Under the pieces are notes generated by a model, which saw nothing but the letters and a program-made list of their open reading frames with translations, had not been told where the DNA came from and did not search any database. A stretch of DNA of 10,652 bases, from positions 1 to 10,652 of the IMG/VR virus record IMGVR_UViG_2671180884_000028. The stretch is one strand, 5' to 3'. Shown here piece after piece: positions 1 through 10,652 of the stretch. Position numbers and translations under genes: made by a program. Origin of the DNA: a virus (Duplodnaviria > Heunggongvirae > Uroviricota > Caudoviricetes). The stretch's first letter is position 1; the number at the start of each line of letters is the position of its first letter.

Positions 1-1242
1 ATGGCGAGAAAAACACCCCCATTAACCACAGTACAGATCAAAGCAGCCAGACCAGCAGAAAAGGAATACACCCTACAGGACGGCGGAGGGCTTTTTCTCC
101 TGATCAAACCGTCTGGATCAAAACTCTGGAGATTTTCCTACTACCGACCATCGGACAAAAAAAGAATATTGCTGAGTTTTGGATCGCTTGATGATGTTTC
201 CCTGGCTGATGCCAGAAAACGCCGTAGCGAGTACAGGGCGTTAATTCGTGCCGGAACTGACCCGCAGGACCACGAGAGGCAAAAAAGAGAGGCAGAGGCC
301 CGAAGACAAGGGAACACGTTCGAAAATGTGGCAACAGCATGGTACCAGGTGAAAATCAGCCAGAATCTGGCCCCCAATACGATTAAAGACATCTGGCGAT
401 CGCTGGAAAAATATGTATTCCCGTTCATCGGCAACACGCCAATAGACACCCTGACCGCTCGCAGGTTTGTTGAGGTGCTTACCCCCATCAAGGAACGTGG
501 CAACCTGGAAACGCTCAAGCGAGTTTTACAGCGTGTAAATGAGGTAATGGATTACGCCGCCAATAGTGGGATGATTGATGCCAATCCGGCTATGAATGTG
601 CGTAAGGCGTTCCCCTCCCCTGTAAAAAAACATATGCCAACAATCCGCCCCGAACAGCTGCCGGAGCTTATGCAGGCTTTATCAGTATCGGCAACAGAAC
701 GGCAGACCAGATTACTGATTGAATGGCAGTTACTGACCGTAACCCGTCCCGTTGAAGCATCGTCGGCACGCTGGGAAGAAATCGACATGGAGGCGCAACG
801 CTGGACCATACCCGCCGGACGCATGAAGATGCGCCGCGACCACGTTATCCCGCTTTGTGACCAGGCTATGGCAGTGCTGGAGGCTATGAAACCAATCAGC
901 CACCACCGCGATTATGTTTTCCCGAGTCTGAAAGACCCACGGCAGCCGATGAACAGCCAGACAGCAAACGCAGCATTACGACGCATGGGGTTCGCTGGCG
1001 TGCTGGTGTCTCATGGATTACGCGCCATATTCAGCACAGCAGCGAACGAGGAAGGATTCGAGCCGGACGTAATCGAGGCGGCACTTGCCCACGTCGACAC
1101 CAACGAAGTCAGACGGGCATACAACCGGAGCAACTACATAGAAAAACGCGTGGTGCTTATGCGCTGGTGGGGCGAATTTGTCGAGGCTGCGGCGACGGGC
1201 GTAACCCTCGCCAGTGGTAAAAGGGGTATCCGAGCCGTTTAG
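1..1242 (+). CDS. int: Tyrosine recombinase / integrase, P4-type (N-terminal arm-binding domain plus C-terminal catalytic domain)
   Basis: 413-aa ORF from ATG at 1 to TAG at 1240-1242. N-terminus (LTTVQIKAARPAEKEYTLQDGGGLFLLIKPSGSKLWRFSYY) is typical of the DUF4102 arm-binding domain of P4-like integrases. C-terminal region (HVIPL..., HGLRAIFSTAANEEGF..., RAYNRSNYIEKR) fits the tyrosine recombinase catalytic R..HxxR..Y pattern. Confidence 0.9.
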   Translation: MARKTPPLTTVQIKAARPAEKEYTLQDGGGLFLLIKPSGSKLWRFSYYRPSDKKRILLSFGSLDDVSLADARKRRSEYRALIRAGTDPQDHERQKREAEARRQGNTFENVATAWYQVKISQNLAPNTIKDIWRSLEKYVFPFIGNTPIDTLTARRFVEVLTPIKERGNLETLKRVLQRVNEVMDYAANSGMIDANPAMNVRKAFPSPVKKHMPTIRPEQLPELMQALSVSATERQTRLLIEWQLLTVTRPVEASSARWEEIDMEAQRWTIPAGRMKMRRDHVIPLCDQAMAVLEAMKPISHHRDYVFPSLKDPRQPMNSQTANAALRRMGFAGVLVSHGLRAIFSTAANEEGFEPDVIEAALAHVDTNEVRRAYNRSNYIEKRVVLMRWWGEFVEAAATGVTLASGKRGIRAV

Positions 1243-1340
1243 CTGTACAGAAAACCAGTAAAAACTACGAAAACCATTTAAAACCGTCGTATAATTGCAT
1301 CACATTTAACGACGAGGCCTTGAAAAATGAAACCGTTAAG

Positions 1341-1571
1341 ATGCAAACAAATTTCAGATGCAATTGCGACGGGCTGCAACTGGCCCTGATGGTTCAGCAT
1401 GAATTTTGGTCAACCTACGATCCGGAGGACAGAACGACGGCCCCATCAAAAAAACAGGTAGTAGATTTCCTGGTATCCCGTGGAGCTTCCAGAAATCTGG
1501 CTGTAAGTATTGATAAGGTTGTACGTCCGGCATCCATGAAGACCGGAGGCAGGCCAAAAAAATGGCGGTAA
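1341..1571 (+). CDS. Hypothetical small protein (76 aa from first ATG; ORF is open from TTG at 1320)
   Basis: Open frame ending TAA 1569-1571, preceded by a TATAAT hexamer at 1290-1295 and followed directly by a strong intrinsic terminator. No convincing Shine-Dalgarno; AGA/AGG codons present. An alternative 20-aa ORF from ATG 1327 has a better RBS (GAGG at 1313-1316). Could instead be a non-coding RNA. Confidence 0.3.
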   Translation: MQTNFRCNCDGLQLALMVQHEFWSTYDPEDRTTAPSKKQVVDFLVSRGASRNLAVSIDKVVRPASMKTGGRPKKWR

Positions 1572-1581
1572 CAATCCTGAA

Positions 1582-1605
1582 AGCGGCAGAAATGCCGCTT
1601 TTTTT
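1582..1605 (+). terminator. Rho-independent terminator
   Basis: Hairpin AGCGGCA-gaaa-TGCCGCT (7-bp stem, GAAA tetraloop) followed by a T-run of 7. Confidence 0.7.
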
Positions 1606-1632
1606 ATAAATCCCTTTCAAATCATCAATATA

Positions 1633-1720
1633 AAAAACGGTGTATACCGTTTAAAAACGGTGAGTACTGTTTTTCCCTGCATCCGATGATTTACCGTATT
1701 TCTCACCGGAATACACCGGA
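1633..1720 (+). promoter_or_regulatory. alpA upstream control region with repeated motifs
   Basis: Direct repeats AAAAACGGTG at 1633-1642 and 1653-1662 (20 bp apart), the first inside the inverted repeat AACGGT-gtat-ACCGTT (1636-1651). Direct repeats CACCGGA at 1704-1710 and 1714-1720 (10 bp apart), just upstream of the alpA RBS. Confidence 0.3.
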
Positions 1721-1738
1721 TTAATGAGGTAAATCACG

Positions 1739-1945
1739 ATGGAAGCAATCAAAAAAGTCATCTTTCGCCAGGAAGTAAAAAAACTTATCCATATTAAGGC
1801 AGACAGCACGCTGCAAAGCATGATCAACGCCGGAGAATTCCCGCAGGGTTTTCGTGTCGGTTTGCGCCGTCGCGGATGGTATGAGGAAGACGTAATCGCA
1901 TGGATGAAAGAACGCGAACAAGAAGCGCGCGGAACGACCGCTTAA
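1739..1945 (+). CDS. alpA: AlpA-family transcriptional regulator (prophage CP4-57 regulatory protein-like, HTH)
   Basis: 68 aa; ATG 1739, TAA 1943-1945; RBS TGAGG at 1725-1729. Sequence (FRQEVKKLIHIKADSTLQSMINAGEFPQGFRVGLRRRGWYEEDVIAWM) fits the AlpA/MerR-like HTH pattern (Φ..EV..L...STL...I..G.FP....VG.R..GW.E.DV..WM). Confidence 0.8.
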   Translation: MEAIKKVIFRQEVKKLIHIKADSTLQSMINAGEFPQGFRVGLRRRGWYEEDVIAWMKEREQEARGTTA

Positions 1946-2066
1946 CATATATAGGGCAAATGATGAACATAAAAAAAGCGGCCCCGAAATGGAGCCACCT
2001 TTCTGAACAATTAACCCGCTGCGCCGTATGTGTCAACAATCATAAGCCTGGGCATGATAACCGCGA

Positions 2067-2270
2067 TCAGGCTGGTGGGCAATTATCTTGCTTGTTGGGG
2101 CCGTATTGTGCTGCCATTTTCATCCGTTCAGAACGTGAATATTTTTTTAGAAACTCATCAAGGACAAAAGCGCATGGTGCGAATCTTTCTGATTCATGCT
2201 CGAGCGCCATATTTTCGTGCTCTCTGTTCGTTTTTTGCGATGGTGTATTGGTTGATTCTTTGTTGGTCAT
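2067..2270 (-). CDS. Hypothetical protein (67 aa), possible second gene downstream of the RHH repressor
   Basis: ATG at 2270 (minus strand), 57 bp downstream of the RHH gene stop on the same strand. Hydrophilic, no recognisable domain, weak RBS. Coding status uncertain. Confidence 0.2.
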   Translation of the reverse strand: MTNKESTNTPSQKTNREHENMALEHESERFAPCAFVLDEFLKKYSRSERMKMAAQYGPNKQDNCPPA

Positions 2271-2327
2271 TGTGTGTACCTGTAAAGCAATGCGCCGGAG
2301 TTCCTCACGCCACGGCGCTGATGGTTT

Positions 2328-2519
2328 TTATCCTTTGGGTTCTATGCCGCGCCGCTTTAGTTCAGTGCGCCCCAACTCTTTAAGCCAGTTGGCCAGGCTT
2401 ATGCCGTCGCTCTGTGCTTCTTTATCGAATTGCTCTTTTAGCTCTGGAGAAATTCGCATTCTGAATTGTGGGGATTGCCCGTCCCCTTTAGGGCTTTTAT
2501 CGCGTTTGATTGTTGACAA
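2328..2519 (-). CDS. Arc-like ribbon-helix-helix (RHH) DNA-binding protein, candidate island repressor
   Basis: The C-terminal 50 aa (SPQFRMRISPELKEQFDKEAQSDGISLANWLKELGRTEL) match the P22 Arc N-terminal beta-strand/helix pattern (MPQFNLRWPREVLDLVRKVAEENGRS...). Start is ambiguous: the ORF is open from TTG 2600; TTG 2519 is preceded by AGGTGA; ATG 2459 would remove the beta-strand. Stop TAA is the reverse complement of 2328-2330. Confidence 0.6.
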   Translation of the reverse strand: MSTIKRDKSPKGDGQSPQFRMRISPELKEQFDKEAQSDGISLANWLKELGRTELKRRGIEPKG

Positions 2520-2561
2520 GTGGTCACCTATTGAATTAGCCTTTCTATTGTTAGGTGACCA
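2513..2561. promoter_or_regulatory. Candidate operator/promoter: perfect 10-bp inverted repeat beside a consensus -35 hexamer
   Basis: TTGACA at 2513-2518; TGGTCACCTA at 2521-2530 and its exact reverse complement TAGGTGACCA at 2552-2561 (21-bp spacer). Lies between the RHH gene and the rightward early operon. No good -10 at canonical spacing, so the promoter call is tentative. Confidence 0.4.
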
Positions 2562-2653
2562 CCTTAACACAAGAGCACTTAAAAAAGCAAAGCCCCGCAA
2601 GTGTCATTACCACTCGCAGGGCTTCTAACCAACAACGTAAACTAGGAGCCGTT

Positions 2654-2848
2654 ATGGTTGCTGTAAATCATATACCACACCTTGTACACACACAAACTGC
2701 CTTTGTGTGGCGTTTTCTGGCACTGAGTGCCGGAGAATCTCAAATCATCCACGTAACCGCCTGGACGGAACGCGAAGCGCGTAACCGTTGCCCGTCCGGT
2801 TGTGTTGCTGTATTTGCCGCCCGTATTCGTCAGGAGGTAGGCTTATGA
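2654..2848 (+). CDS. Icd/Ash-like small protein (host cell-division-inhibitor-like family of P4-type elements)
   Basis: 64 aa from ATG 2654 with RBS AGGAG at 2644-2648. Motifs FVWRFLAL...TEREARNR...FAARI resemble the Icd-like family as recalled. The ORF track's longer version starts at GTG 2555 and would overlap the RHH gene. Confidence 0.5.
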   Translation: MVAVNHIPHLVHTQTAFVWRFLALSAGESQIIHVTAWTEREARNRCPSGCVAVFAARIRQEVGL

Positions 2849-3078
2849 GCCAGGAAATCACACTACAACAGGCAGCAGAACGCGCCCACCAAATCGAAGT
2901 TATTTGCGCACTGGCAGAGGATTACCCTGGCATGATGACCGACAGCGAATCAGGGGCAATCATCGGCTTACTTAAACGCCTTAGCGGTGAGGTCTGCGTA
3001 TTCCTGAGCGATGAACAGGAAAGAAGAACGCTTATTTCTAACGAAAAAAAATGCGGAGGGGTACACCATGTGCAATAA
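2845..3078 (+). CDS. Hypothetical protein (77 aa)
   Basis: ATG 2845 overlaps the upstream stop (ATGA at 2845-2848); RBS AGGAGG at 2832-2837. Confidence 0.55.
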   Translation: MSQEITLQQAAERAHQIEVICALAEDYPGMMTDSESGAIIGLLKRLSGEVCVFLSDEQERRTLISNEKKCGGVHHVQ

Positions 3079-3289
3079 CATCCGTCCGGACGCAGCAGCC
3101 GCCGCGCTCACTACGCTGATGCACGCGCTTATCGATATTGAATGCACTGCAGAGCTTGCGCAGGGAGAAGAACAGAAAGACCGGACACAGTTCGCCCTGG
3201 AATGTATCCGATACATCGCAACGCGGTCGCTGAATGACGCTAAAAATATTCTTGTTGCTGATTGTGAAAATGGGGGGGGTTATGCGTGA
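3068..3289 (+). CDS. Hypothetical protein (73 aa)
   Basis: ATG 3068 preceded by GGAGGGG (3055-3061). Overlaps the end of the upstream ORF by 11 nt. An in-frame ATG at 3011 lacks an RBS. Confidence 0.5.
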   Translation: MCNNIRPDAAAAALTTLMHALIDIECTAELAQGEEQKDRTQFALECIRYIATRSLNDAKNILVADCENGGGYA

Positions 3290-3515
3290 TGATCGTTTTA
3301 ATTCCCTGAAACAGGAATTTTCCGGCGTTCCTGATGATGCGGCTGATGCGCTTTCGTCAATGCCAGAACTTATTAGAGCGGCTTTTTTCTTACTTTCCAC
3401 GAGAGAATATAAATCAACGGGGCTTGATGTACTGAATATCGCCGCCGATTATGCGGAATATGTGGCAGAGGCGCGTTACAGAAGAAAATTTCCTGAGGAT
3501 GTAAGCCATGCGTGA
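3282..3515 (+). CDS. Hypothetical protein (77 aa)
   Basis: ATG 3282 preceded by a G-rich RBS (GGGGGGGG at 3272-3279). Overlaps the upstream stop at 3287-3289. Alternative ATG at 3234 has no RBS. Confidence 0.5.
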   Translation: MRDDRFNSLKQEFSGVPDDAADALSSMPELIRAAFFLLSTREYKSTGLDVLNIAADYAEYVAEARYRRKFPEDVSHA

Positions 3516-3741
3516 TATTTACCTCGAAACAATAGACCGCGCATTTCTTGCACTTTCTCACAGTGAAAGCATGATGGAAATATTACGCATATGGCTTGAA
3601 ACACTTGGCGACAATGAACGCGACAAACAAAAATCAAGAATTGCCACGGTATTAATAACGCTTCTTGAGCCTGTAATAATGGAACTGCAAGAAATAGACT
3701 TATTGCACGACAGATATAACGAACAGCACACCGGAGAATAA
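3508..3741 (+). CDS. Hypothetical protein (77 aa)
   Basis: ATG 3508 with GAGGA at 3495-3499; 8-nt overlap with the upstream ORF; stop TAA 3739-3741. Confidence 0.55.
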   Translation: MRDIYLETIDRAFLALSHSESMMEILRIWLETLGDNERDKQKSRIATVLITLLEPVIMELQEIDLLHDRYNEQHTGE

Positions 3742-3746
3742 AAATA

Positions 3747-4046
3747 ATGAAACTTAAATATTCTGGCTTAACTGCCAGTGGCAACACTCACCCTAAATTT
3801 ACGCGCGGTGATATTTACCGCGACCAGTACGGCGGCACGGTAATGATTAAGGGCGTGGCGGGACGGTGCGTAACTTACCGCCGTGAAGGTTACGAATATG
3901 ATTGCGTGATGCCTGTTTATCAGTTCCGGCGTGATTTTTCTCTGGTACAGACCGCGCCGCATAACGTGCCCACCAGCAACGCCAGAGCACGGGCAAACAT
4001 CCAGAAGCTGAAAACCATGATTAACGGATTCAGGGGTAAAAAATGA
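3747..4046 (+). CDS. Hypothetical protein (99 aa)
   Basis: ATG 3747 with GGAGAA at 3733-3738. Its stop overlaps the primase start (ATGA at 4043-4046), indicating translational coupling. Confidence 0.55.
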   Translation: MKLKYSGLTASGNTHPKFTRGDIYRDQYGGTVMIKGVAGRCVTYRREGYEYDCVMPVYQFRRDFSLVQTAPHNVPTSNARARANIQKLKTMINGFRGKK

Positions 4047-5797
4047 AACTGGCACCGAACGTAAAACAGCAGTCACGCGGCATAAAACACAAAGAAACAG
4101 AAGTCATTATTTTTGCGGGTAGTGATGCCTGGTCACACGCGAAACAATGGCAGGAACATGACGCGCGTATGGCCGGAGATAATGAGCCTCCTGTGTGGCT
4201 TGGGGAGCAGCAGTTATCAGAACTGGATAAGCTGCAAATTGTGCCGGAAGGCAGAAAATCCGTGCGCATATTCAGGGCCGGACATCTTGCACCAGTAATG
4301 ATCAAGGCGATTGGTCAAAAGCTGGCGGCGGCTGGTGTACAGGATGCAAATTTTTATCCTGAGGGTATGCACGGCAAGGAGGTGCAGAACTGGCGCGAAT
4401 ACCTGGCCCGTGAACGCCAGAATCTTTCTGATGGTCTGGTCATTGAGCTTCCGGTAAAGCAAAAGGCGCAACTTTCGCAGATGGCGGACAGTGAGCGCGC
4501 GCAGTTGCTTGTCGATCGCTTTGATGGCGTTTGCGTACATCCTGAAAGTGAAATCGTTCACGTATGGCGTGGCGGGGTATGGTGTCCGGTCAGCACAATG
4601 GAACTGAGCCGCGAAATGGTGGCGATCTATTCAGAGCACAGGGCCACTTTCAGCAAGCGCGTAATCAATAACGCCGTGGAAGCATTAAAAGTTATTGCCG
4701 AACCAATGGGCGAGCCGTCCGGCGATTTGTTGCCGTTCGCCAATGGTGCGCTTGACCTGAAAACAGGGGAATTTTCCCCGCACACGCCGGAGAACTGGAT
4801 CACCACGCACAACGGCATTGAATACACGCCACCAGCACCAGGGGAGAATATCCGCGACAACGCGCCAAACTTTCATAAATGGCTTGAGCACGCAGCCGGA
4901 AAAGACCCGCGCAAGATGATGCGTATATGTGCCGCGCTGTACATGATTATGGCGAACCGGTACGACTGGCAGATGTTTATTGAGGCCACCGGAGACGGCG
5001 GGAGCGGTAAAAGTACATTCACACACATAGCCAGCCTTCTGGCAGGGAAACAGAACACGGTAAGCGCTGAGATGACATCGCTTGATGATGCTGGTGGACG
5101 TGCGCAGGTTGTCGGGAGTCGTCTTATCGTCCTGGCAGACCAGCCGAAATATACAGGCGAAGGAACGGGCATCAAGAAAATCACGGGCGGCGACCCCGTG
5201 GAAATTAACCCGAAATATGAAAAGCGTTTCACGGCGGTAATCAGGGCGGTGGTGCTGGCGACCAATAACAATCCGATGATATTCACCGAACGGGCCGGAG
5301 GTGTGGCACGTCGTCGCGTGATTTTCCGTTTCGACAATATTGTTAGTGAGGCCGAAAAAGACAGGGAGCTACCGGAAAAAATTGCGGCTGAAATCCCCGT
5401 CATTATCCGCCGCTTGCTGGCGAACTTTACCGACCCTGAAAAGGCACGGGCTTTACTCATTGAGCAGCGTGACGGTGATGAAGCTCTGGCAATAAAGCAA
5501 CAGACGGATCCGGTTATTGAGTTTTGCCAGTTCCTGAATTTTCTGGAGGAAGCGCGCGGCCTGATGATGGGGGGCGGTGGCGATTCAGTGAAGTACACGA
5601 CCAGGAACAGCCTTTACCGCGTCTATCTGGCGTTTATGGCATACGCAGGCAGGAGCAAACCGCTAAACGTGGCTGAGTTCAGCAAGGCCATGAAGCCAGC
5701 GGCGAAAGTTTACGGGCATGAATATATTACGCGAAAAGTTAAGGGAGTAACGCAGACCAACGCAATTACAACAGACGATTGCGACGCGTTTTTATAA
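4043..5797 (+). CDS. Replication initiator: primase / SF3 helicase (P4 alpha-like / D5-family Pri-Rep protein)
   Basis: 584 aa. Walker A motif ATGDGGSGKST and Walker B-like RLIVLADQP in the C-terminal half. Size and layout match satellite primase-helicases. An iteron-rich origin lies immediately downstream. Confidence 0.85.
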   Translation: MKLAPNVKQQSRGIKHKETEVIIFAGSDAWSHAKQWQEHDARMAGDNEPPVWLGEQQLSELDKLQIVPEGRKSVRIFRAGHLAPVMIKAIGQKLAAAGVQDANFYPEGMHGKEVQNWREYLARERQNLSDGLVIELPVKQKAQLSQMADSERAQLLVDRFDGVCVHPESEIVHVWRGGVWCPVSTMELSREMVAIYSEHRATFSKRVINNAVEALKVIAEPMGEPSGDLLPFANGALDLKTGEFSPHTPENWITTHNGIEYTPPAPGENIRDNAPNFHKWLEHAAGKDPRKMMRICAALYMIMANRYDWQMFIEATGDGGSGKSTFTHIASLLAGKQNTVSAEMTSLDDAGGRAQVVGSRLIVLADQPKYTGEGTGIKKITGGDPVEINPKYEKRFTAVIRAVVLATNNNPMIFTERAGGVARRRVIFRFDNIVSEAEKDRELPEKIAAEIPVIIRRLLANFTDPEKARALLIEQRDGDEALAIKQQTDPVIEFCQFLNFLEEARGLMMGGGGDSVKYTTRNSLYRVYLAFMAYAGRSKPLNVAEFSKAMKPAAKVYGHEYITRKVKGVTQTNAITTDDCDAFL

Positions 5798-5810
5798 TTT
5801 TTTGTAAAAG

Positions 5811-6040
5811 CCCTCTACCCCATCTACCTGAATGAAATAAATACATATTATTCAACATGATAAGTGGGTAGAGGGCCAGGTAGAAGGCTAATAAAAGCTC
5901 TCTACCTCTTCTACCTGATTTTATCAGTTTCAGGTAGCAGGGTAGACGGTAGGTAGAGGAGCCCAAAAAGCTATCTACCCGCTGAAAGCCGCGCCATTAC
6001 TGACATGATGAGCATTCGGGTAGATGGGTAGAGGGGGGGA
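5811..6040. repeat. Iteron array / candidate origin of replication
   Basis: About 12 copies of a core TCTACC / GGTAGA motif arranged in clustered pairs in both orientations. Examples: CCCTCTACCCCATCTACCTGA (5811-5831), GGGTAGAGGGCCAGGTAGAAGG (5865-5886), CTCTCTACCTCTTCTACCTGA (5899-5919), AGGTAGCAGGGTAGACGGTAGGTAGAGGA (5932-5960), GGGTAGATGGGTAGAGGGG (6018-6036). An AT-rich stretch sits at 5831-5862. Confidence 0.6.
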
Positions 6041-6080
6041 GGCACAACTAAAAACTTTTTAAACGAGGGGGTGAAAATAA

Positions 6081-6395
6081 ATGCGCATACATCAAAATCA
6101 CTTAACAAACATGCCAGCCGAAAACATGAATCAGGGGCGACAAATGACCAAAATTCGCAGAGACAGAACAGAGCCAAAATATAAAGCGTTAGACATGACT
6201 GAGCATACCTTAAAGGTGGCAATCAGAACGATAGACCGCCACGCGGGGGAAGGATACGCGAAAGCACATCCCGACATGATAAGCGCATTCATGACCACGA
6301 CGGCGGCAAATTTTGCCACGCTGACAGAGCGGGAGATTGCGGAAGCTGAACAGGTGACAACCATCAACGTTAAAAACGTAGAGGTGGAATCATGA
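6081..6395 (+). CDS. Hypothetical protein (104 aa)
   Basis: ATG 6081 with RBS GAGGGGG (6065-6071). Stop overlaps the ssb start (ATGA at 6392-6395). Confidence 0.55.
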   Translation: MRIHQNHLTNMPAENMNQGRQMTKIRRDRTEPKYKALDMTEHTLKVAIRTIDRHAGEGYAKAHPDMISAFMTTTAANFATLTEREIAEAEQVTTINVKNVEVES

Positions 6396-6809
6396 CAGCA
6401 CAGATAGCGGCTTACGGGCGGCTGGTGGCTGGTGGCTGACCCACAGTTAAAGACCACCAGCAAGGGCACACAAATGACGATGGCGAGTATGGCGGTTCCC
6501 CTGACATGCAGCCAGGCTGATGACGGAACGGCGACGATGTGGTTATCCGTCCTGGCGTTTGGCAGACAGGCCGACGCACTGGCAAAACACCGCAAAGGCG
6601 AGCTGGTGAGCGTGGCGGGTAACATGCAGGTAAGCCAGTGGACAGGCCAGAACGGCGAAACGCGGCAGGGCTGGCAGGTTATCGCAGACAGTGTAATCAG
6701 TGCCCGTGCTGCCCGTCCTGGCGGGAGCAGACGTACAACCACAGGCACACAGGGTAATCAGCCACCAGCGGGAGGCGATGACCCTTACGGTGACGGTATT
6801 CCGTTCTGA
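6392..6809 (+). pseudogene. ssb: Single-stranded DNA-binding protein (SSB-like), disrupted by a frameshift
   Basis: ATG 6392 opens MTAQIAAYGRLVAGG and then hits TGA at 6437-6439. The rest of the protein continues in the +1 frame (ADPQLKTTSKGTQMTMASMAVPL...GWQVIADSVISA...DDPYGDGIPF) with the SSB acidic DIPF tail. A tandem 7-bp duplication GCTGGTG/GCTGGTG at 6421-6434 accounts for the shift; removing one copy restores ...GRLVADPQLK... in frame. Confidence 0.65.
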
Positions 6810-6819
6810 GGGGGTGACG

Positions 6820-7092
6820 ATGGTACATGACCGCATAGCGGAGGAACTCGAGGCAAAAGGCTTTTACCGGAGGGCGGCGGCGCGATGGGGTGAAGTTATG
6901 CAGCTGGTGGAGACAGACAAGGAACGGCATCAGGTTACGATGCGACGGCTGGAATGTTCCAGGAAGGCACAGAAGCCACCGGAGCCGCCGGATAACTTCG
7001 GAGACCTGAGAAAGGCAGTCGATCGCACTTATGCTGAAATGGGTATAGATGGTGTAAGCGATGAAATATGGCGTAATTACCCAGACAGCTAA
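6820..7092 (+). CDS. PerC-family transcriptional regulator-like protein (90 aa)
   Basis: ATG 6820 with RBS GAGGGGG (6808-6814). N-terminus MVHDRIAEELEAKGFYRRAAARWGEVMQL matches the conserved PerC/Pch N-terminal pattern as recalled. Confidence 0.55.
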   Translation: MVHDRIAEELEAKGFYRRAAARWGEVMQLVETDKERHQVTMRRLECSRKAQKPPEPPDNFGDLRKAVDRTYAEMGIDGVSDEIWRNYPDS

Positions 7093-7097
7093 TCAAC

Positions 7098-7120
7098 AGC
7101 CGGAGAAATCCGGCTTTTTT
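7098..7120 (+). terminator. Rho-independent terminator
   Basis: Hairpin AGCCGGA-gaaa-TCCGGCT followed by TTTTTT, directly after the PerC-like gene. An almost identical copy occurs at 9372-9395. Confidence 0.6.
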
Positions 7121-7131
7121 GTACCCAAAAA

Positions 7132-7169
7132 AAGCCCGATAAGTACAGGAGGCATCTTATCGGGCTTTT
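7132..7169. terminator. Second hairpin, possible bidirectional terminator
   Basis: AAGCCCGATAAG-(12-nt loop)-CTTATCGGGCTT with TTTT on the plus side and an A7 run (T7 on minus) on the other side. Confidence 0.4.
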
Positions 7170-7246
7170 GCATATGAGGTTTTTTTGGTGCACTGACACA
7201 CATGATCGGGATAATCATTTCATAATTTGCAACACAACTCAACATC

Positions 7247-7297
7247 ATTGCACAAAATGCAATCCTGATTATAATCAGAGCTGGATGTTCATCCAGT
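7247..7297 (+). promoter_or_regulatory. Promoter of the head module with three palindromic elements (candidate operator or activator sites)
   Basis: -35 TTGCAC (7248-7253), 16-bp spacer, consensus -10 TATAAT (7270-7275). The -10 lies inside the perfect 14-bp palindrome CTGATTATAATCAG (7265-7278). Flanked by ATTGCA-caaaa-TGCAAT (7247-7263) and CTGGATG-tt-CATCCAG (7281-7296). Confidence 0.5.
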
Positions 7298-7331
7298 TAT
7301 GATTTTTTAAGTCAAAGAGGAATTTCTTACT

Positions 7332-7538
7332 ATGGCTGAAGAGAAAAAAGGCGGTGTTTCGGTGTACATAAGCCCCGACATCGTGAAGGCGCTCAAGGAA
7401 CGCCACCAGCAGAACGTAAAAGCAGGCATTGCGGCAGGACTTGATCCGCTGGCGATGGTTGAGCCGTCAACAGGCTGGCAGGTGCGCGCCTACTTACGTG
7501 CGGCGCTGGGTATGAATCAGGTTCACGGGGGTGAATAA
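7332..7538 (+). CDS. Hypothetical head-module protein (68 aa), translationally coupled to the major capsid gene
   Basis: ATG 7332 with RBS AAGAGGAA (7315-7322). Stop overlaps the capsid gene start (TAATG at 7536-7540). Position suggests a scaffold or assembly factor, but there is no sequence evidence for this. Confidence 0.5.
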   Translation: MAEEKKGGVSVYISPDIVKALKERHQQNVKAGIAAGLDPLAMVEPSTGWQVRAYLRAALGMNQVHGGE

Positions 7539-8593
7539 TGGCAGGCAAAGCAATGGCACTTAACACTAACCAGCTTTTTACATACCTGAATCGCGGGGAT
7601 ATTGCGGAATTTAAATTCAGTCCGCTGTTTACCACGCTGTTTTTCCCGAACGTGGCGACATTCAGCACCCAAAACATCATGCTGGATACCCTGGACATTG
7701 AAGAAGTCACCATGTCGGCGTTTTGTTCGCCTATGGTTGGCAGTCAGGTACAGCGCGATAAAGGGTATGAAACCAGCACAATCAAACCTGGCTACATGAA
7801 GCCAAAGCACGAAATCGATCCAACAAAAACCATCATGCGCATGGCTGGAGAAGATCCGGCACAGCTTAACGACCCTACCTACCGCCGTATGCGCCTGATT
7901 ACTGGCAACATGCGCCGCCAGATAAACGCCATTAAAGCGCGCGTGGAATGGCTGGCGGTGAATGCGATAACGACCGGAAAAAACATCATTGAGGGCGAAG
8001 GCATAGAACGCTATGAAATCGACTGGAAAATACCGGAAAACTGCATCATAGAGCAGGCCAAGGGTAAAAAATGGTCCGAGCATGATAAAGATATTTACGA
8101 TCCAATCTATGACATCGAACTATACGCAGATCAGGCAGGTTGCCCCGCCAACGTCATGATTATGGGCGCTGAGGTATGGCGCACGTTACGCAGCTTTAAA
8201 AAATTCCGCGAACTGTACGATCTTTCCCGTGGTTCAGAATCCGCCGCAGAACTGGCCTGTAAAAACCTGGGTGAAGTAGTGAGCTTTAAAGGCTATCTGG
8301 GCGATATTGCCCTTATCGTCTATTCCGGCAAATACACTGACAGCGACGGTACCGAAAAATATTTCCTTGAGCCTGATTTGCTGGTCCTGGGTAACACCAA
8401 CAATAAAGGGCTGGTGGCCTATGGTGCGATTATGGATCAGGAAGCGGTAAGAACGGGCGCAACGCAAAACATGTTCTACCCGAAAAACTGGATTGAAGAC
8501 GGCGATCCGGCGATTGAGTACGTTCAGACGCACAGCGCACCGCAGCCGGTACCGGCAGATATTCGCAAATTTGTTACCGTCAAAATTGGTTAA
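7538..8593 (+). CDS. Major capsid protein, lambda gpE family (HK97 fold)
   Basis: 351 aa. Collinear with lambda gpE as recalled: EFKFSPLFTTLFF vs KFKFDPLFLRLFF; PGYMKPKHEIDP vs PGYVKPKHEVNP; GEDPAQLNDPTYRRMRLITGNMR vs DEDPQNLADPAYRRRRIIMQNMR; VSFKGYLGDIALIVYSGKY vs VSYKGMYGDVAIVVYSGQY; FYPKNWIEDGDPA vs RYPKNWVTTGDPA; C-terminus KFVTVKIG vs EFVSVQLA. Confidence 0.9.
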   Translation: MAGKAMALNTNQLFTYLNRGDIAEFKFSPLFTTLFFPNVATFSTQNIMLDTLDIEEVTMSAFCSPMVGSQVQRDKGYETSTIKPGYMKPKHEIDPTKTIMRMAGEDPAQLNDPTYRRMRLITGNMRRQINAIKARVEWLAVNAITTGKNIIEGEGIERYEIDWKIPENCIIEQAKGKKWSEHDKDIYDPIYDIELYADQAGCPANVMIMGAEVWRTLRSFKKFRELYDLSRGSESAAELACKNLGEVVSFKGYLGDIALIVYSGKYTDSDGTEKYFLEPDLLVLGNTNNKGLVAYGAIMDQEAVRTGATQNMFYPKNWIEDGDPAIEYVQTHSAPQPVPADIRKFVTVKIG

Positions 8594-8604
8594 CGGGGGA
8601 TTCT

Positions 8605-8940
8605 ATGGACACTCCATACATTGAGTTATTTGCAGGCAGTCAGCAGGTATCCACGACGCTGGTACATTTTGCCGCTGATGCTGGCGTCATTCAGGAATTT
8701 ACCCCGCTGATGCTGGCGGACAATGGCGAGTTTAAGCCGTGGGATGGTCAGGAATCTGGCAAGGCTGTTTATCTGACCTCGTACCCTGTGGACACGTCAA
8801 AGCAAAAATCAGCACAGTGTTACAAGACGGGGATATTTAATATCGCCGCCGTAAACTGGCCTGAGAGCGTCGACACTGACGCGAAAAAATGCGCCGCCTT
8901 TGCGGGTTCTGGCGTATCCGTTCAGCCGCTGGCGCGATAA
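8605..8940 (+). CDS. Head decoration / stabilisation protein, lambda gpD-like
   Basis: 111 aa; ATG 8605 with RBS GGGGGA. Matches lambda gpD as recalled: TPLMLADNGEFKPWDG vs TPLMLDTSSRKLVAWDG; CYKTGIFNIAAVNWPE vs FYKSGTFRYEDVLWPE; DAKKCAAFAGSGVS vs DETKKRTAFAGTAIS. Confidence 0.8.
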   Translation: MDTPYIELFAGSQQVSTTLVHFAADAGVIQEFTPLMLADNGEFKPWDGQESGKAVYLTSYPVDTSKQKSAQCYKTGIFNIAAVNWPESVDTDAKKCAAFAGSGVSVQPLAR

Positions 8941-8952
8941 GCAGGGGGAACG

Positions 8953-9366
8953 ATGGCAACGAATGAAAGCATCATGACGCTACCGCTGGCGAGTAAATTT
9001 AAAGCCGAAGCGCGGGCAATGGCTGACAGAGGTTTATCAACCTACGAGGCCGTATATCAACTCAACAAACTGGAAGAGCAGGACAAGCCGCGCGCTGATG
9101 CGATTATGGCGCTTCATGAACATAACGACTATCAGCCGCTGTTACGTGCAATGGCAAACGTGCCATGTATTAGCGTCGATAATGCTCGTGAAATCCTGAA
9201 CATGACCATAGAGCAGGAGCGCCCAAAGGTTGCGCCGGAGCTTACCGCAGCCTTTGAAAACTTTATGGACATGCACAGCCCGAAAGCCGTATCACCCGGC
9301 ATGGCATACGATGGCAGAAACCAGGGCGATGACGGCGACATCGATCGCATACTGAAAACCATCTGA
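8953..9366 (+). CDS. Hypothetical protein (137 aa) at the end of the head module
   Basis: ATG 8953 with RBS AGGGGGAA (8943-8950). Followed by a terminator hairpin. No recognisable homology. Confidence 0.55.
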   Translation: MATNESIMTLPLASKFKAEARAMADRGLSTYEAVYQLNKLEEQDKPRADAIMALHEHNDYQPLLRAMANVPCISVDNAREILNMTIEQERPKVAPELTAAFENFMDMHSPKAVSPGMAYDGRNQGDDGDIDRILKTI

Positions 9367-9371
9367 GACAA

Positions 9372-9395
9372 GGCCGGAGAAATCCGGCTTTTTTT
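9372..9395 (+). terminator. Rho-independent terminator (second copy of the hairpin at 7098-7120)
   Basis: GGCCGGA-gaaa-TCCGGC followed by T7. Sits immediately upstream of the cosQ-like sequence. Confidence 0.6.
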
Positions 9396-9572
9396 ACGGG
9401 TCCTTTCCGGCATATGGACCCGTTACGGGGCGGCGACCTCGCGCGTTTTCGCTATTTATGAGCCTTTTCAGGGGGGTGGTGGTGGTTTTGTTGTTTGCTC
9501 TATCTTTATGAATGAAAAGGGAAAGATGCAAACAATACACCAACCTGAAGCAGTAATTAAGTTGGTGTATTA
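9396..9572 (+). other. cos site A (cosQ-like, cosN, divergent cosB), forward orientation, upstream of terS
   Basis: ACGGGTCCTTTCCGG...CCGTTACG followed by the exact lambda cohesive-end 12-mer GGGCGGCGACCT (9428-9439), then CGCGCGTTTTCGCTATTTATGAG, closely matching the lambda genome left end as recalled. The distal part lacks lambda R-site motifs and instead has inverted repeats AATACACCAAC / GTTGGTGTATT (9530-9540 / 9561-9571) and TGTTTGC / GCAAACA (9494-9500 / 9517-9523). Confidence 0.75.
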
Positions 9573-10115
9573 ATGAAATCGCACCTGATGAACAAAAAAA
9601 ACATGGCGAAAAGCTGCCGTGTAAGTGCGACAGCGTTCGACAAGTGGGGAGTGACTCCCGTTGAACGTAAAGGCCGTGAGGCGTTTTATGATGTTGCCAG
9701 CGTGATAGACAATAGGGTTAACAATGCAATTAGCCAGCTTACAAACGACAAAGGCGATATTGATGATGATGAACTCTTACGAGTCAGGATCAGATTACTG
9801 ACAGCACAGGCGGAGGCGCAGGAACTTAAAAACGAGCGCGATCGCGGTGACGTGATTGATACTGAGTTTTGCCTGTACGCGCTTTCAAAGCTGGCGAGTC
9901 AGATTTCATCAATCATGGACAGCCTCCCGCTTACTATGCAAAGGAGCTTCCCACAGATTACCCCCGCCATGCTGGACAGGCTTAAAAGGGAAGTGGTTAA
10001 AGCCTGTAATGCCAGTGCCAGAGTTGCCGACAACCTCCCACAGATACTGGCTGATTACTTGAAAGAAACAACCGGAAACGTACCGGAAAAGTTGCTACAG
10101 AAGAAAGGCAAGTAA
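9573..10115 (+). CDS. Terminase small subunit, lambda Nu1-like (TerS)
   Basis: 180 aa. Middle and C-terminal regions are collinear with lambda Nu1 as recalled: LTAQAEAQELKNERDRGDVIDTEFCLYALSKLASQISSIMDSLPLTMQRSFPQ vs LTRAQADAQELKNARDSAEVVETAFCTFVLSRIAGEIASILDGLPLSVQRRFPE. The N-terminal wHTH region is much more divergent. Alternative start ATG 9588 (MNKKNMAK) aligns with Nu1 MEVNKKQLA. No strong RBS at either start. Confidence 0.85.
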   Translation: MKSHLMNKKNMAKSCRVSATAFDKWGVTPVERKGREAFYDVASVIDNRVNNAISQLTNDKGDIDDDELLRVRIRLLTAQAEAQELKNERDRGDVIDTEFCLYALSKLASQISSIMDSLPLTMQRSFPQITPAMLDRLKREVVKACNASARVADNLPQILADYLKETTGNVPEKLLQKKGK

Positions 10116-10340
10116 CAGAAGCGCAATTATTGAACAAAAATGAGAAACGACATGAAAGCGTCATAAATCGCCATTTCAGATGATTACCGTGTCGTTTCTT
10201 TTTATTGTGTATCTATTTAAAAACAAATAGTTATGTTCGAGAAGTACCGACATGATTTTTCCAGAAAAATTTTCATAAACAGATAAAAACCGCGAGGTCG
10301 CCGCCCCGTAACGGGCCATAATTCCAGGAAGGACCCGACG
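10116..10340 (-). other. cos site B (lambda-like cosQ-cosN-cosB) in inverted orientation, downstream of terS
   Basis: On the minus strand: CGGGTCCTTCCTGGAATTATGGCCCGTTACG, then GGGCGGCGACCT (plus 10295-10306), then CGCGGTTTTTATCTGTTTATGAAAATTTTTCTGG, then R-site-like AAGAAACGACACGG and ATGTCGTTTCTCA (perfect 10-bp inverted repeat at plus 10152-10161 / 10190-10199). This is collinear with lambda cosN-I2-R3-R2 as recalled. A 25-bp core is a perfect inverted repeat of cos A (9419-9443 vs 10291-10315). Confidence 0.7.
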
Positions 10341-10370
10341 ACACCAGACTATCAGAACGATGGGGGCACA

Positions 10371-10652
10371 ATGACAGAAGCCGAACTACTGCGATTAATC
10401 CGTCGCGTTGCCGGAATCAGCCAGCAGGCTGACGAACAGGCCACGCAGCCGGACAGCGTGACAGCCGAAAATTATGTGCGTGTTGTTGCGGAGGTGATGC
10501 GCCGTGATGGTATCCAGCTTAATGATGCGGATATGCGCGACATACGGATCCGCGTTCTTGAAATGCTGGCCTACCGTCGCCGCGTGCAGACGTACAGGGA
10601 AAAAGCAAAAATAACGTACCAGTGGAAGAAGCCGGAGCGATTACGGCGGTAA
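10371..10652 (+). CDS. Hypothetical protein (93 aa) just beyond cos B
   Basis: ATG 10371 with G-rich RBS (GGGGG at 10362-10366); stop TAA 10650-10652 at the window end. No recognisable homology. Confidence 0.45.
   Translation: MTEAELLRLIRRVAGISQQADEQATQPDSVTAENYVRVVAEVMRRDGIQLNDADMRDIRIRVLEMLAYRRRVQTYREKAKITYQWKKPERLRR

Follow-up and report, generated by a model that had tools for sequence, protein, structure and literature searches.

Six chained small genes and a predicted antisense RNA in the early region of an EcCICFT073-type phage satellite

The element analyzed here, a small island filling positions 1 to 10,652 of the IMG/VR virus record IMGVR_UViG_2671180884_000028 (this whole 10,652-nt stretch is called the window below), has its closest described counterparts among the phage-inducible chromosomal islands (PICIs) of Escherichia coli. 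EcCICFT073 carries capsid (c1499) and decoration (c1500) genes, the activator AlpA and RgdR, and its helper-dependent induction, replication and transfer were shown with lambda and phi80 (PMC6092414). AlpA is itself induced by helper phages and activates the downstream genes; it is the sole regulator shown for islands of this type, for which the existence of a repressor was called unclear, and its overexpression results in uncontrolled EcCICFT073 replication and viability loss (PMC6092414). EcCICFT073 also interferes with lambda, and deletion of the capsid or decoration gene gave no relief (PMC6092414). OI-51/CP-933C, the O157:H7 element of the RgdR characterization (Flockhart et al. 2012, PMC3378721), was equated with EcCICFT073-type PICIs by Fillol-Salom et al. 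2018 (PMC6092414). Judged by gene content and order, the whole window is a complete small island, a PICI of this EcCICFT073/O157 OI-51 type. We focused on the six small open reading frames (ORFs), termed O1–O6, that lie between its alpA-like gene and its replicase gene.

Conservation and selection patterns make us highly confident that O1–O6 are real genes and form a PICI early operon between alpA and the island replicase. Over the start of the first gene, we predict a cis-antisense RNA. A real PICI early operon combined with an antisense gate is the overall best explanation for the region, one that we regard as probable while leaving considerable room for doubt. The operon itself is routine for a satellite family already described, and public genomes carry its annotation; the predicted antisense RNA was previously undescribed and represents the most interesting product of the analysis.

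Six chained genes ahead of the replicase

All six ORFs lie on the plus strand: O1 (2654–2848, 64 aa), O2 (2845–3078, 77 aa), O3 (3068–3289, 73 aa), O4 (3282–3515, 77 aa), O5 (3508–3741, 77 aa) and O6 (3747–4046, 99 aa). Their junctions, from O1/O2 through O6/primase, measure −4 (ATGA), −11, −8, −8, +5 and −4 (ATGA) nt. The two −8 junctions, O3/O4 and O4/O5, both read ATGCGTGA and correspond to the same 9-mer, ATGCGTGAT. Duplex energies with the anti-Shine–Dalgarno (anti-SD) sequence were −6.5 to −11.6 kcal/mol at all seven starts (six ORFs and the primase gene), and the SD-like site of each start ranked within the strongest 0.6–10% of window positions. Coordinates, junctions and energies thus bear out a preliminary description of this DNA, which had read the region as six chained small ORFs, each with its own ribosome-binding site. 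The chain also runs into the primase gene as described, the O6 stop overlapping the primase start by ATGA, and the PICI gene set and an operon ending in a primase gene agree with the accompanying proposal of a satellite early region feeding a replication gene.

For comparison, 115 related loci were used, 110 of them IMG/VR sequences and 5 drawn from genomes of E. coli, Shigella and E. albertii, with O5 as one of two sampling queries; a scan of genome contigs with O6 returned two loci only. The order O1-(O2)-O3-O4-O5-O6-replicase was constant across the 115 loci. ORF lengths were kept (O5, 77 aa in 106 of 107 loci; O6, 99 aa in 107 of 111), as was the junction geometry in 70 distinct operon sequences, with +5 for O5/O6 in 63 of 64 and the −4 ATGA overlap between O6, the DUF4222 gene, and the following replicase gene in 68 of 70. 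Median pairwise dN/dS (ω), the ratio of nonsynonymous to synonymous substitution rates, was 0.38 for O1, 0.50 for O3, 0.34 for O4, 0.39 for O5 and 0.29 for O6 in the annotated frame. The two shifted frames gave 0.8–1.6, and the purifying selection across related islands on which the preliminary description had staked its reading is therefore evident for five ORFs (ω 0.29–0.50). For O1 and O3–O6, BLOSUM62 substitution scores likewise favoured the annotated frame over the wobble-matched antisense frame. O2 was almost invariant in the sampled islands, which renders its dN/dS uninformative. The ORFs also have more relatives than was initially thought, when only the first was credited with a family resemblance: all six match PHROG families (E 6e-12 to 2e-49), and O6 additionally matches Pfam DUF4222 (PF13973; E 2e-23, 82.1 bits against a cut-off of 27).

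A contrary view, that the six include reading frames open by chance or in decay, could point to the near-invariance of O2, where selection is not measurable in this sample, to the ω of O3, the highest of the set at 0.50, and to the unstable frame at O3/O4 (see below). We consider it essentially excluded. Because ORF lengths and junctions are kept in ~100 loci, low ω and conservative substitutions are specific to the annotated frame, PHROG matches exist for all six and O2 has homologues in other genera, we conclude from conservation, selection and family assignments that all six ORFs are real genes. All-pairs hhalign comparisons revealed no paralogy among the six proteins (probability ≤1.1%), and by these profiles O1–O6 are six separate families.

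The first gene and a predicted antisense RNA over its start

By profile comparison, O1 is a true homologue of phage P1 Icd, whose family is named for the inhibition of cell division. Its Icd-likeness, already recognized in the preliminary description, was confirmed by NCBIfam NF033153 (E 5e-18, 64.9 bits against a cut-off of 25) and by hhalign, which aligned a nine-allele O1 profile to P1 Icd with 96% probability (E 3.8e-9; 39% identity across 44 columns). The motif FxWRF...A.TE.EAR...P.G...F.AR is common to the O1 alleles and P1 Icd. The 64-aa protein is basic and soluble-looking (isoelectric point (pI) 9.0, grand average of hydropathy (GRAVY) 0.24), and every allele of its gene retains an SD sequence and ATG of its own. 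PDB sequence searches with O1 and O6 profiles gave zero matches at E values up to 10. In one island group, L010 and similar loci, an Ash-family (PF10554) segment and the N terminus of the other O1 allele precede the Icd domain in a fusion, an instance of domain shuffling at the first gene that leads to ‘ash family protein’ annotations of ~104–111 aa.

At 2579–2660 on the minus strand, we predict a cis-antisense RNA of ~82 nt that covers the O1 SD (2644–2648) and start codon; its predicted 5′ end lies ~7 nt past a −10 box. A terminator scan located a hairpin of 15 pairs at 2589–2625, 16 nt upstream of the O1 SD, with a minus-strand U-run at 2588–2579. Nearly all related loci have a hairpin at this position, with differing sequences. 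In 35 of 36 distinct variants, folding favours the minus strand over the plus strand (mean −25.5 versus −19.0 kcal/mol), because its G-U pairs correspond to C-A mismatches on the plus strand. In 26 aligned variants, 13 pairs were 97.9% paired, eight of them with compensatory double changes; none of 500 shuffles reached the observed values, and slid controls paired at 39–57%.

The −10 box, TATGAT (within TGGTATATGAT), occupies 2667–2672 on the minus strand, inside O1 codons 5–7, and the allele-A variants other than L033 have it. In the divergent O1 allele (~44–57% protein identity), TGGTATGAT or TGGTATAAT, an extended −10, stands at O1 nt +8..+13. Between the O1 alleles, the nucleotide motif AAATCATA(TA)CCACAC is kept despite a differing reading frame, which points to selection on DNA, not protein. 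The predicted RNA folds into two stem-loops (−36.6 kcal/mol, z −4.8), the first of which carries the anti-SD CUCCU as part of its loop and the anti-start codon as part of its stem, and the same architecture is seen in other alleles. Rfam at E values up to 1 yielded no family in 2500–2700, five weak matches elsewhere being noise, and no description was found in literature on CP-933C small RNAs or PICI antisense RNAs. A scan of viral contigs with the Icd profile returned close relatives only; the prediction of the antisense RNA covers this island family.

Upstream of O1, an Arc-like ribbon-helix-helix (RHH) gene of 63 aa diverges from the operon (2328–2519, minus strand). Read from the sequence, it has a TTG start at 2519 with an AGGTGA SD; it matches phrog_228, an Arc-like repressor family (E 5e-7), and Pfam HicB below cut-off (E 5e-4), with ω at 0.19, and its product is a plausible candidate repressor. 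Between the RHH gene start and the operon leader lies an operator-like inverted repeat, GTGGTCACCTA-N21-TAGGTGACCAC (2520–2562). Loci with other Arc-like or YlcI-YnfO-type regulators show different inverted repeats in the same layout, with arms of 8–13 bp and spacers of 13–21 bp across islands, and we infer from this pattern cognate repressor–operator pairs with swapped specificities. The alpA–O1 spacer further contains a 67-aa minus-strand gene (2067–2270; phrog_21027, PHROG E 2e-12) with homologues in ~70 loci. In 163 of 201 pairs, ω was lower in its minus frame than in the plus frame matched for wobble, substitutions were gentler as well, and the gene gave the sole PADLOC match, a weak Cas8g-like one (E 6e-4).

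From these sequence features and their conservation, and by analogy with known systems, we infer the RNA itself, its effect, the coupling along the chain and a link to AlpA. The ~82-nt RNA would be transcribed from the −10 box in the first codons of O1 and end at the covarying Rho-independent terminator. In the resting island it would block O1 translation, perhaps together with the RHH protein, and coupling and polarity would extend the block to every later gene, the replicase included. Once a helper induces AlpA, transcription driven by it would titrate the antisense RNA away, a mechanism like that of P1 c4-icd-ant with the RNA encoded in cis. By extension, the RNA, possibly with allele-specific Arc-like repressors and operators, might be the long-sought PICI silencing switch that keeps the replicase off until a helper induces AlpA, and the RNA/Icd pair could also make induction lethal; we advance this wider proposal only tentatively. 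If true, the RNA/Icd pair would link satellite immunity with the phage-triggered cell death described for Icd-like/primase loci.

Several observations weigh against such a gate. The RNA is predicted from sequence only, and its −10 box scores 8 of 12 in the window allele, below the generic scan threshold. No plus-strand operon promoter near O1 was identified in the scan, the AlpA link to the operon is carried over from EcCICFT073 and the overlaps suggest translational coupling, short of proof. The hairpin could instead insulate or attenuate the leftward RHH and 67-aa genes. RgdR, the characterized counterpart of O6, is expressed with phenotypes in uninduced O157 (PMC3378721), and O6 would therefore at least escape any tight gate. 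Considered separately from the operon, we rate the antisense gate on the chain as a serious possibility that falls a little short of probable.

O1 and the antisense RNA could alternatively constitute an addiction pair resembling type I toxin–antitoxin systems, with the downstream genes merely co-transcribed. Such a pair would fit a predicted cis-antisense RNA that spans the SD and start of a gene from a division-inhibitor-named family, both being conserved in nearly all sampled islands. Most type I toxins are small hydrophobic membrane peptides. O1, with its 64 aa, GRAVY of 0.24 and pI of 9.0, does not look like a peptide of this kind, however, and it is always embedded in a chain with overlapping junctions, which leaves an addiction pair quite unlikely in our view.

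Between the end of alpA and O1, a plus-strand frame of 247 codons (1885–2628) stays open and stops 25 nt ahead of the O1 ATG. Of 65 distinct relatives, 38 have it in the same frame as O1, with lengths of up to 469 aa (L096:1837–3246), and it persists across non-homologous inserts. The frame is antisense to and wobble-aligned with the minus-strand genes, has a worse coding fit than these and shows no family match beyond the Icd domain and a weak anti-repressor-like N-terminal stretch in L096. It probably explains database and pseudogene calls of an ‘Icd-like protein with long N-terminal extension’. The corresponding long ORF upstream of O1 (1900–2628, 242 aa) was rejected as a real ‘long Icd’: it has no family match, the minus-strand genes beneath it fit coding better and O1 keeps its own SD and ATG.

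Products of the chain and their exchange between islands

The preliminary description counted five uncharacterized proteins, a number that shrinks to four (O2–O5) since O6, by sequence, is a member of the already characterized RgdR/DUF4222 family. O6 has a pI of 10.2, shows R20, G21 and D22 in the alignment and shares 96% identity with its positional counterpart in O157:H7. RgdR (ECs1581) is a 99-aa basic protein that activates LEE1 of the enterocyte effacement locus (LEE) and type III secretion, represses motility and binds DNA non-specifically; the LEE1 and motility effect was shown for ECs1581 and C1493, in enterohaemorrhagic E. coli (EHEC) (PMC3378721). According to PMC6092414, every E. 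coli PICI analysed there encodes the protein. O6 resembles ECs1581 in its 99-aa length, basic character, RGD at positions 20–22 and location directly upstream of the replicase, whereas the LEE/motility effect is one established in the EHEC host.

The two remote-homology and structure approaches first suggested for these proteins were productive for both ends of the chain, identifying O1 as Icd and yielding for O6 a predicted Tudor/SH3-like (Tudor/KOW-like) barrel. They failed in the middle, where a natural O3–O4 fusion gave a model of two helical hairpins and a disordered linker with a predicted local distance difference test (pLDDT) score of 60, too poor for a fold search. What follows DUF4222 in annotated E. 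coli hits is a gene for a primase (D5/P4), a RepA-family helicase or a DUF927 protein, and the overlap between the O6 stop and the replicase start holds for every replicase type. Inside O5, a promoter-like site (3652–3680, plus strand; TTAATA-17-AATAAT with TG) lies ~67 nt upstream of O6. Synonymous-site conservation at 3652–3680 was not unusual, and we set the site aside as an internal O5 promoter, it being a consensus match only, without synonymous-site constraint; perhaps O6 is nevertheless expressed independently from it, which could explain why RgdR is expressed in uninduced O157 cells.

O2–O5 are acidic (pI 4.5–5.0) and predicted to be helical. None had a Pfam, NCBIfam or PADLOC match, and no functional study of the O157/CFT073 locus-tag counterparts was found in the literature. 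O2 (phrog_1478) is an optional cassette that only some of the related islands carry. It is 41% identical over 58 aa, ungapped, to STM0898.6n of Salmonella phage Fels-1 and 38% identical to Klebsiella prophage proteins, and these phage homologues are located in the early-left operons of Fels-1 and the Klebsiella prophages, downstream of the repressor gene. O3 was assigned to phrog_5146 and the N-terminal half of phrog_2512, O4 to phrog_24341 and the C-terminal half of phrog_2512 and O5 to the orphan family phrog_2196 (PHROG E 2.5e-39). O3, O4 and O5 gave zero matches in 50,697 phage records, P4-like entries included. For O5, an exhaustive HMMER pass over 1.84 billion representatives returned 11 relatives, with every matched stretch in a protein of ≤78 aa and one longer entry having no aligned stretch. 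Most likely, O2–O5 are acidic helical accessory proteins binding helper or host proteins.

Each position of the chain has several allele classes (for O1, ~100%, ~85% and ~50% identity, among others) that occur in many combinations, and these combinations precede three replicase types: primase, RepA helicase and DUF927. Synonymous variability is 0.00–0.10 at gene boundaries compared to 0.3–0.6 within genes. The allele mixing, the synonymous collapse at boundaries and the identical 9-mer junctions are the pattern expected if alleles were exchanged among islands by recombination at conserved junctions.

Homopolymers at two junctions alter the architecture of the products. An A8 tract (3044–3051, plus strand) precedes the O3 start, and its A7 variants encode an O2–O3 fusion of 146 aa. 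A G8 tract (3272–3279, plus strand) sits at the O3/O4 junction; in 48 distinct contexts, the G-run measured 7 (13 contexts), 8 (22), 9 (9), 10 (3) or 11 (1). G7 and G10 fuse O3 and O4, G8 produces the 8-nt overlap and G9 extends O3. The O3–O4 fusions are 142–155 aa long in the sampled contexts, and fused proteins of 150–156 aa are found in hundreds of database clusters; because complete genomes are among these clusters, the fused proteins are not sequencing artefacts. Natural fusions suggest that neighbouring products act together, and the G tract may be a phase-variable or slippage-prone site and thereby a possible switch of protein architecture.

These properties bear on two broader views of the chain. 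The first sees an effector payload of helper interference, derepression, host takeover or anti-defence proteins. Many phage-encoded inhibitor proteins are small and acidic, as are O2–O5, which moreover evolve as exchangeable cassettes with several alleles per position. O3–O5 are confined to these islands, O2 is common to early-left operons of temperate phages and the lambda interference of EcCICFT073 persists without the capsid or decoration gene. However, no specific link of O2–O5 to a target emerged, homology to known defence or anti-defence proteins was absent in PADLOC, Pfam and NCBIfam, the O3–O4 structure model is of low confidence (pLDDT 60), O5 and O6 are near-universal in the sampled loci (O5 being a sampling query) and O6, tied to the replicase, looks like a core life-cycle function. 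On balance, a payload of this kind appears doubtful.

The second view takes O2–O6 as accessory replication or recombination proteins for the island replicase, acting in origin binding, helicase loading or as replisome adaptors. It accords with the position directly upstream of the replicase in a chain ending in the latter, with the non-specific DNA binding of RgdR (PMC3378721), with the O6 barrel model, which resembles barrels docking helicases or transcription factors onto polymerases, and with O2 homologues near a recombination exonuclease in Klebsiella prophages. Yet the same small genes precede three unrelated replicase types, which argues against specific partners, and no similarity to known loaders or initiators was detected in Pfam, PHROG or NCBIfam. 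We therefore consider dedicated replication partners unlikely, and retain a PICI early operon under a possible antisense gate as the preferred reading.

The island and its known relatives

At the nucleotide level, the island matches E. coli Nissle 1917 and other strains with 93% identity over 91% of the window. The islands of Nissle 1917 and other E. coli are annotated with int, helix-turn-helix (HTH)/alpA, Icd-like, DUF4222, primase, single-stranded DNA-binding protein (SSB), major capsid, decoration and TerS genes. Of 5,426 complete E. coli genomes, 1,457 show some match to the operon region, the best single match reaching 88% coverage at 94.7% identity, and on this evidence the island combines alleles of a described satellite module in a new way. 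Roughly one complete E. coli genome in four thus has a related block, O157:H7, uropathogenic strains and the probiotic Nissle 1917 among them, and one chain member, RgdR, already affects virulence gene expression. The conserved predicted antisense RNA at the Icd-like gene provides a concrete, testable candidate for a PICI silencing switch, and the four orphans O2–O5 are a compact set to screen for helper-phage or host targets.

The remaining genes agree with the features by which Gram-negative PICIs are recognized. An integrase gene (1–1242), 94–97% identical to annotated integrases of tRNA-Pro islands, stands at one end, and the relatives adjoin an attachment site at tRNA-Pro; the closest are at tRNA-Pro beside yejM, while the O157 island lies between roxA and phoQ. 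An alpA-like HTH gene (1739–1945, plus strand) is followed in the same orientation by the pri-rep module. The alpA matches are weak (Pfam Phage_AlpA E 0.003, below the curated cut-off; PHROG excisionase/regulator 1e-7), with 90% identity to the HTH regulator of the Nissle island and ω at 0.16, and those of the D5_N/P4-family primase-helicase gene (4043–5797, plus strand) are strong (Pfam D5_N 1e-15; TIGR01613 8e-32; phrog_864 8e-174). The size falls in the usual range of ~10–15 kb, a related island spanning ~10.4 kb between tRNA-Pro and yejO. Most structural and lysis genes of phages are missing, morphogenesis being limited to capsid, decoration and TerS-like functions.

The downstream part of the window holds an SSB-like gene, annotated in the island gene set, and a lambda E-type major capsid gene (7538–8593). 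With its own lambda E-type capsid, decoration and TerS-like genes within 7538–10115, the island has a c1499/c1500-type module. In the gap before this capsid module are two strong terminator-type hairpins with U/A runs (7097–7171 and 7130–7316), likely the point where the replication operon ends and the packaging module begins; their Rfam matches, ncr1175 and Spy1186876, are weak and meaningless.

Among described elements, the EcCICFT073-type PICIs share with the window the order int, alpA, small ORFs including Icd-like and RgdR/DUF4222 genes, replicase, SSB, lambda-type capsid, decoration and TerS-like genes. The window island differs from many of these relatives in having the optional O2 cassette and the Arc-like RHH allele. 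A more distant parallel is the satellite phage P4, which has small left-operon genes before the alpha primase and RNA-based immunity. The likeness of its left operon to the window lies in small early genes leading to a P4-family primase (TIGR01613) and in an RNA-level control of the leader, the latter only proposed for the window. Between P4 and PICIs, only AlpA, Pri-Rep and Int were reported to be distantly related (PMC6092414).

Two loci linked to phage-triggered cell death resemble the chain by description. In ECOR61, transposon suppressors of orf24-triggered death fell in three consecutive overlapping small genes including an Icd-like one, six linked genes including a primase gene were needed for reconstitution and removal of the Icd-like gene abolished killing (preprint 10.1101/2023.04.06.535777). 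In ECOR15, death triggered by Abc1 maps within a P4-type satellite, to its integrase, AlpA, Icd-like and primase genes and a hypothetical gene (10.1101/2023.04.06.535777). The chain might, by the same token, serve abortive infection or superinfection exclusion, with a phage protein triggering expression and the Icd-like protein, along with runaway replication, killing or arresting the cell to the benefit of the population. Both death loci of Silas et al., with their Icd-like gene and primase, speak for this possibility, as does the viability cost of AlpA overexpression in EcCICFT073. Death is, however, also expected from ordinary satellite induction, for which a selected defence is unneeded, the ECOR61 genes are likened to the window by description only and no PADLOC model matches O1–O6; we see selected defence as conceivable but questionable. 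Descriptively, the loci have in common with the window overlapping small-gene chains and an Icd-like gene beside a primase gene, in satellites or prophages. They differ in their longer Icd-like proteins (~121 and ~183 aa, against 64 aa for O1) and in their triggers, orf24 and Abc1, which are not known to act on the window island.

For the proposed control of the chain, the nearest parallel is the P1 immI region (c4-icd-ant1/ant2). The P1 record places c4 target sites at the icd ribosome-binding site, shows an ATGA overlap of icd and ant1 and annotates icd as ‘apparently required for expression of ant’. In both systems, an icd-type gene is the short first gene of an ATGA-joined chain, and an antisense RNA, annotated in P1 and predicted in the window, acts or would act at the icd ribosome-binding site. 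In contrast to P1, where C4 RNA is cut from the same strand upstream and has short target sites, the window RNA is predicted to be encoded in cis, on the opposite strand, with full complementarity. Upstream of O1, Rfam at E values up to 1 gave no match to a C4-type same-strand RNA, and O2–O6 have no Ant or Bro/KilA matches in Pfam or PHROG that would indicate a coupled Ant gene; the window chain instead ends in a replicase. By analogy, the O1 module would therefore work like P1 c4-icd-ant without being a member of that class.

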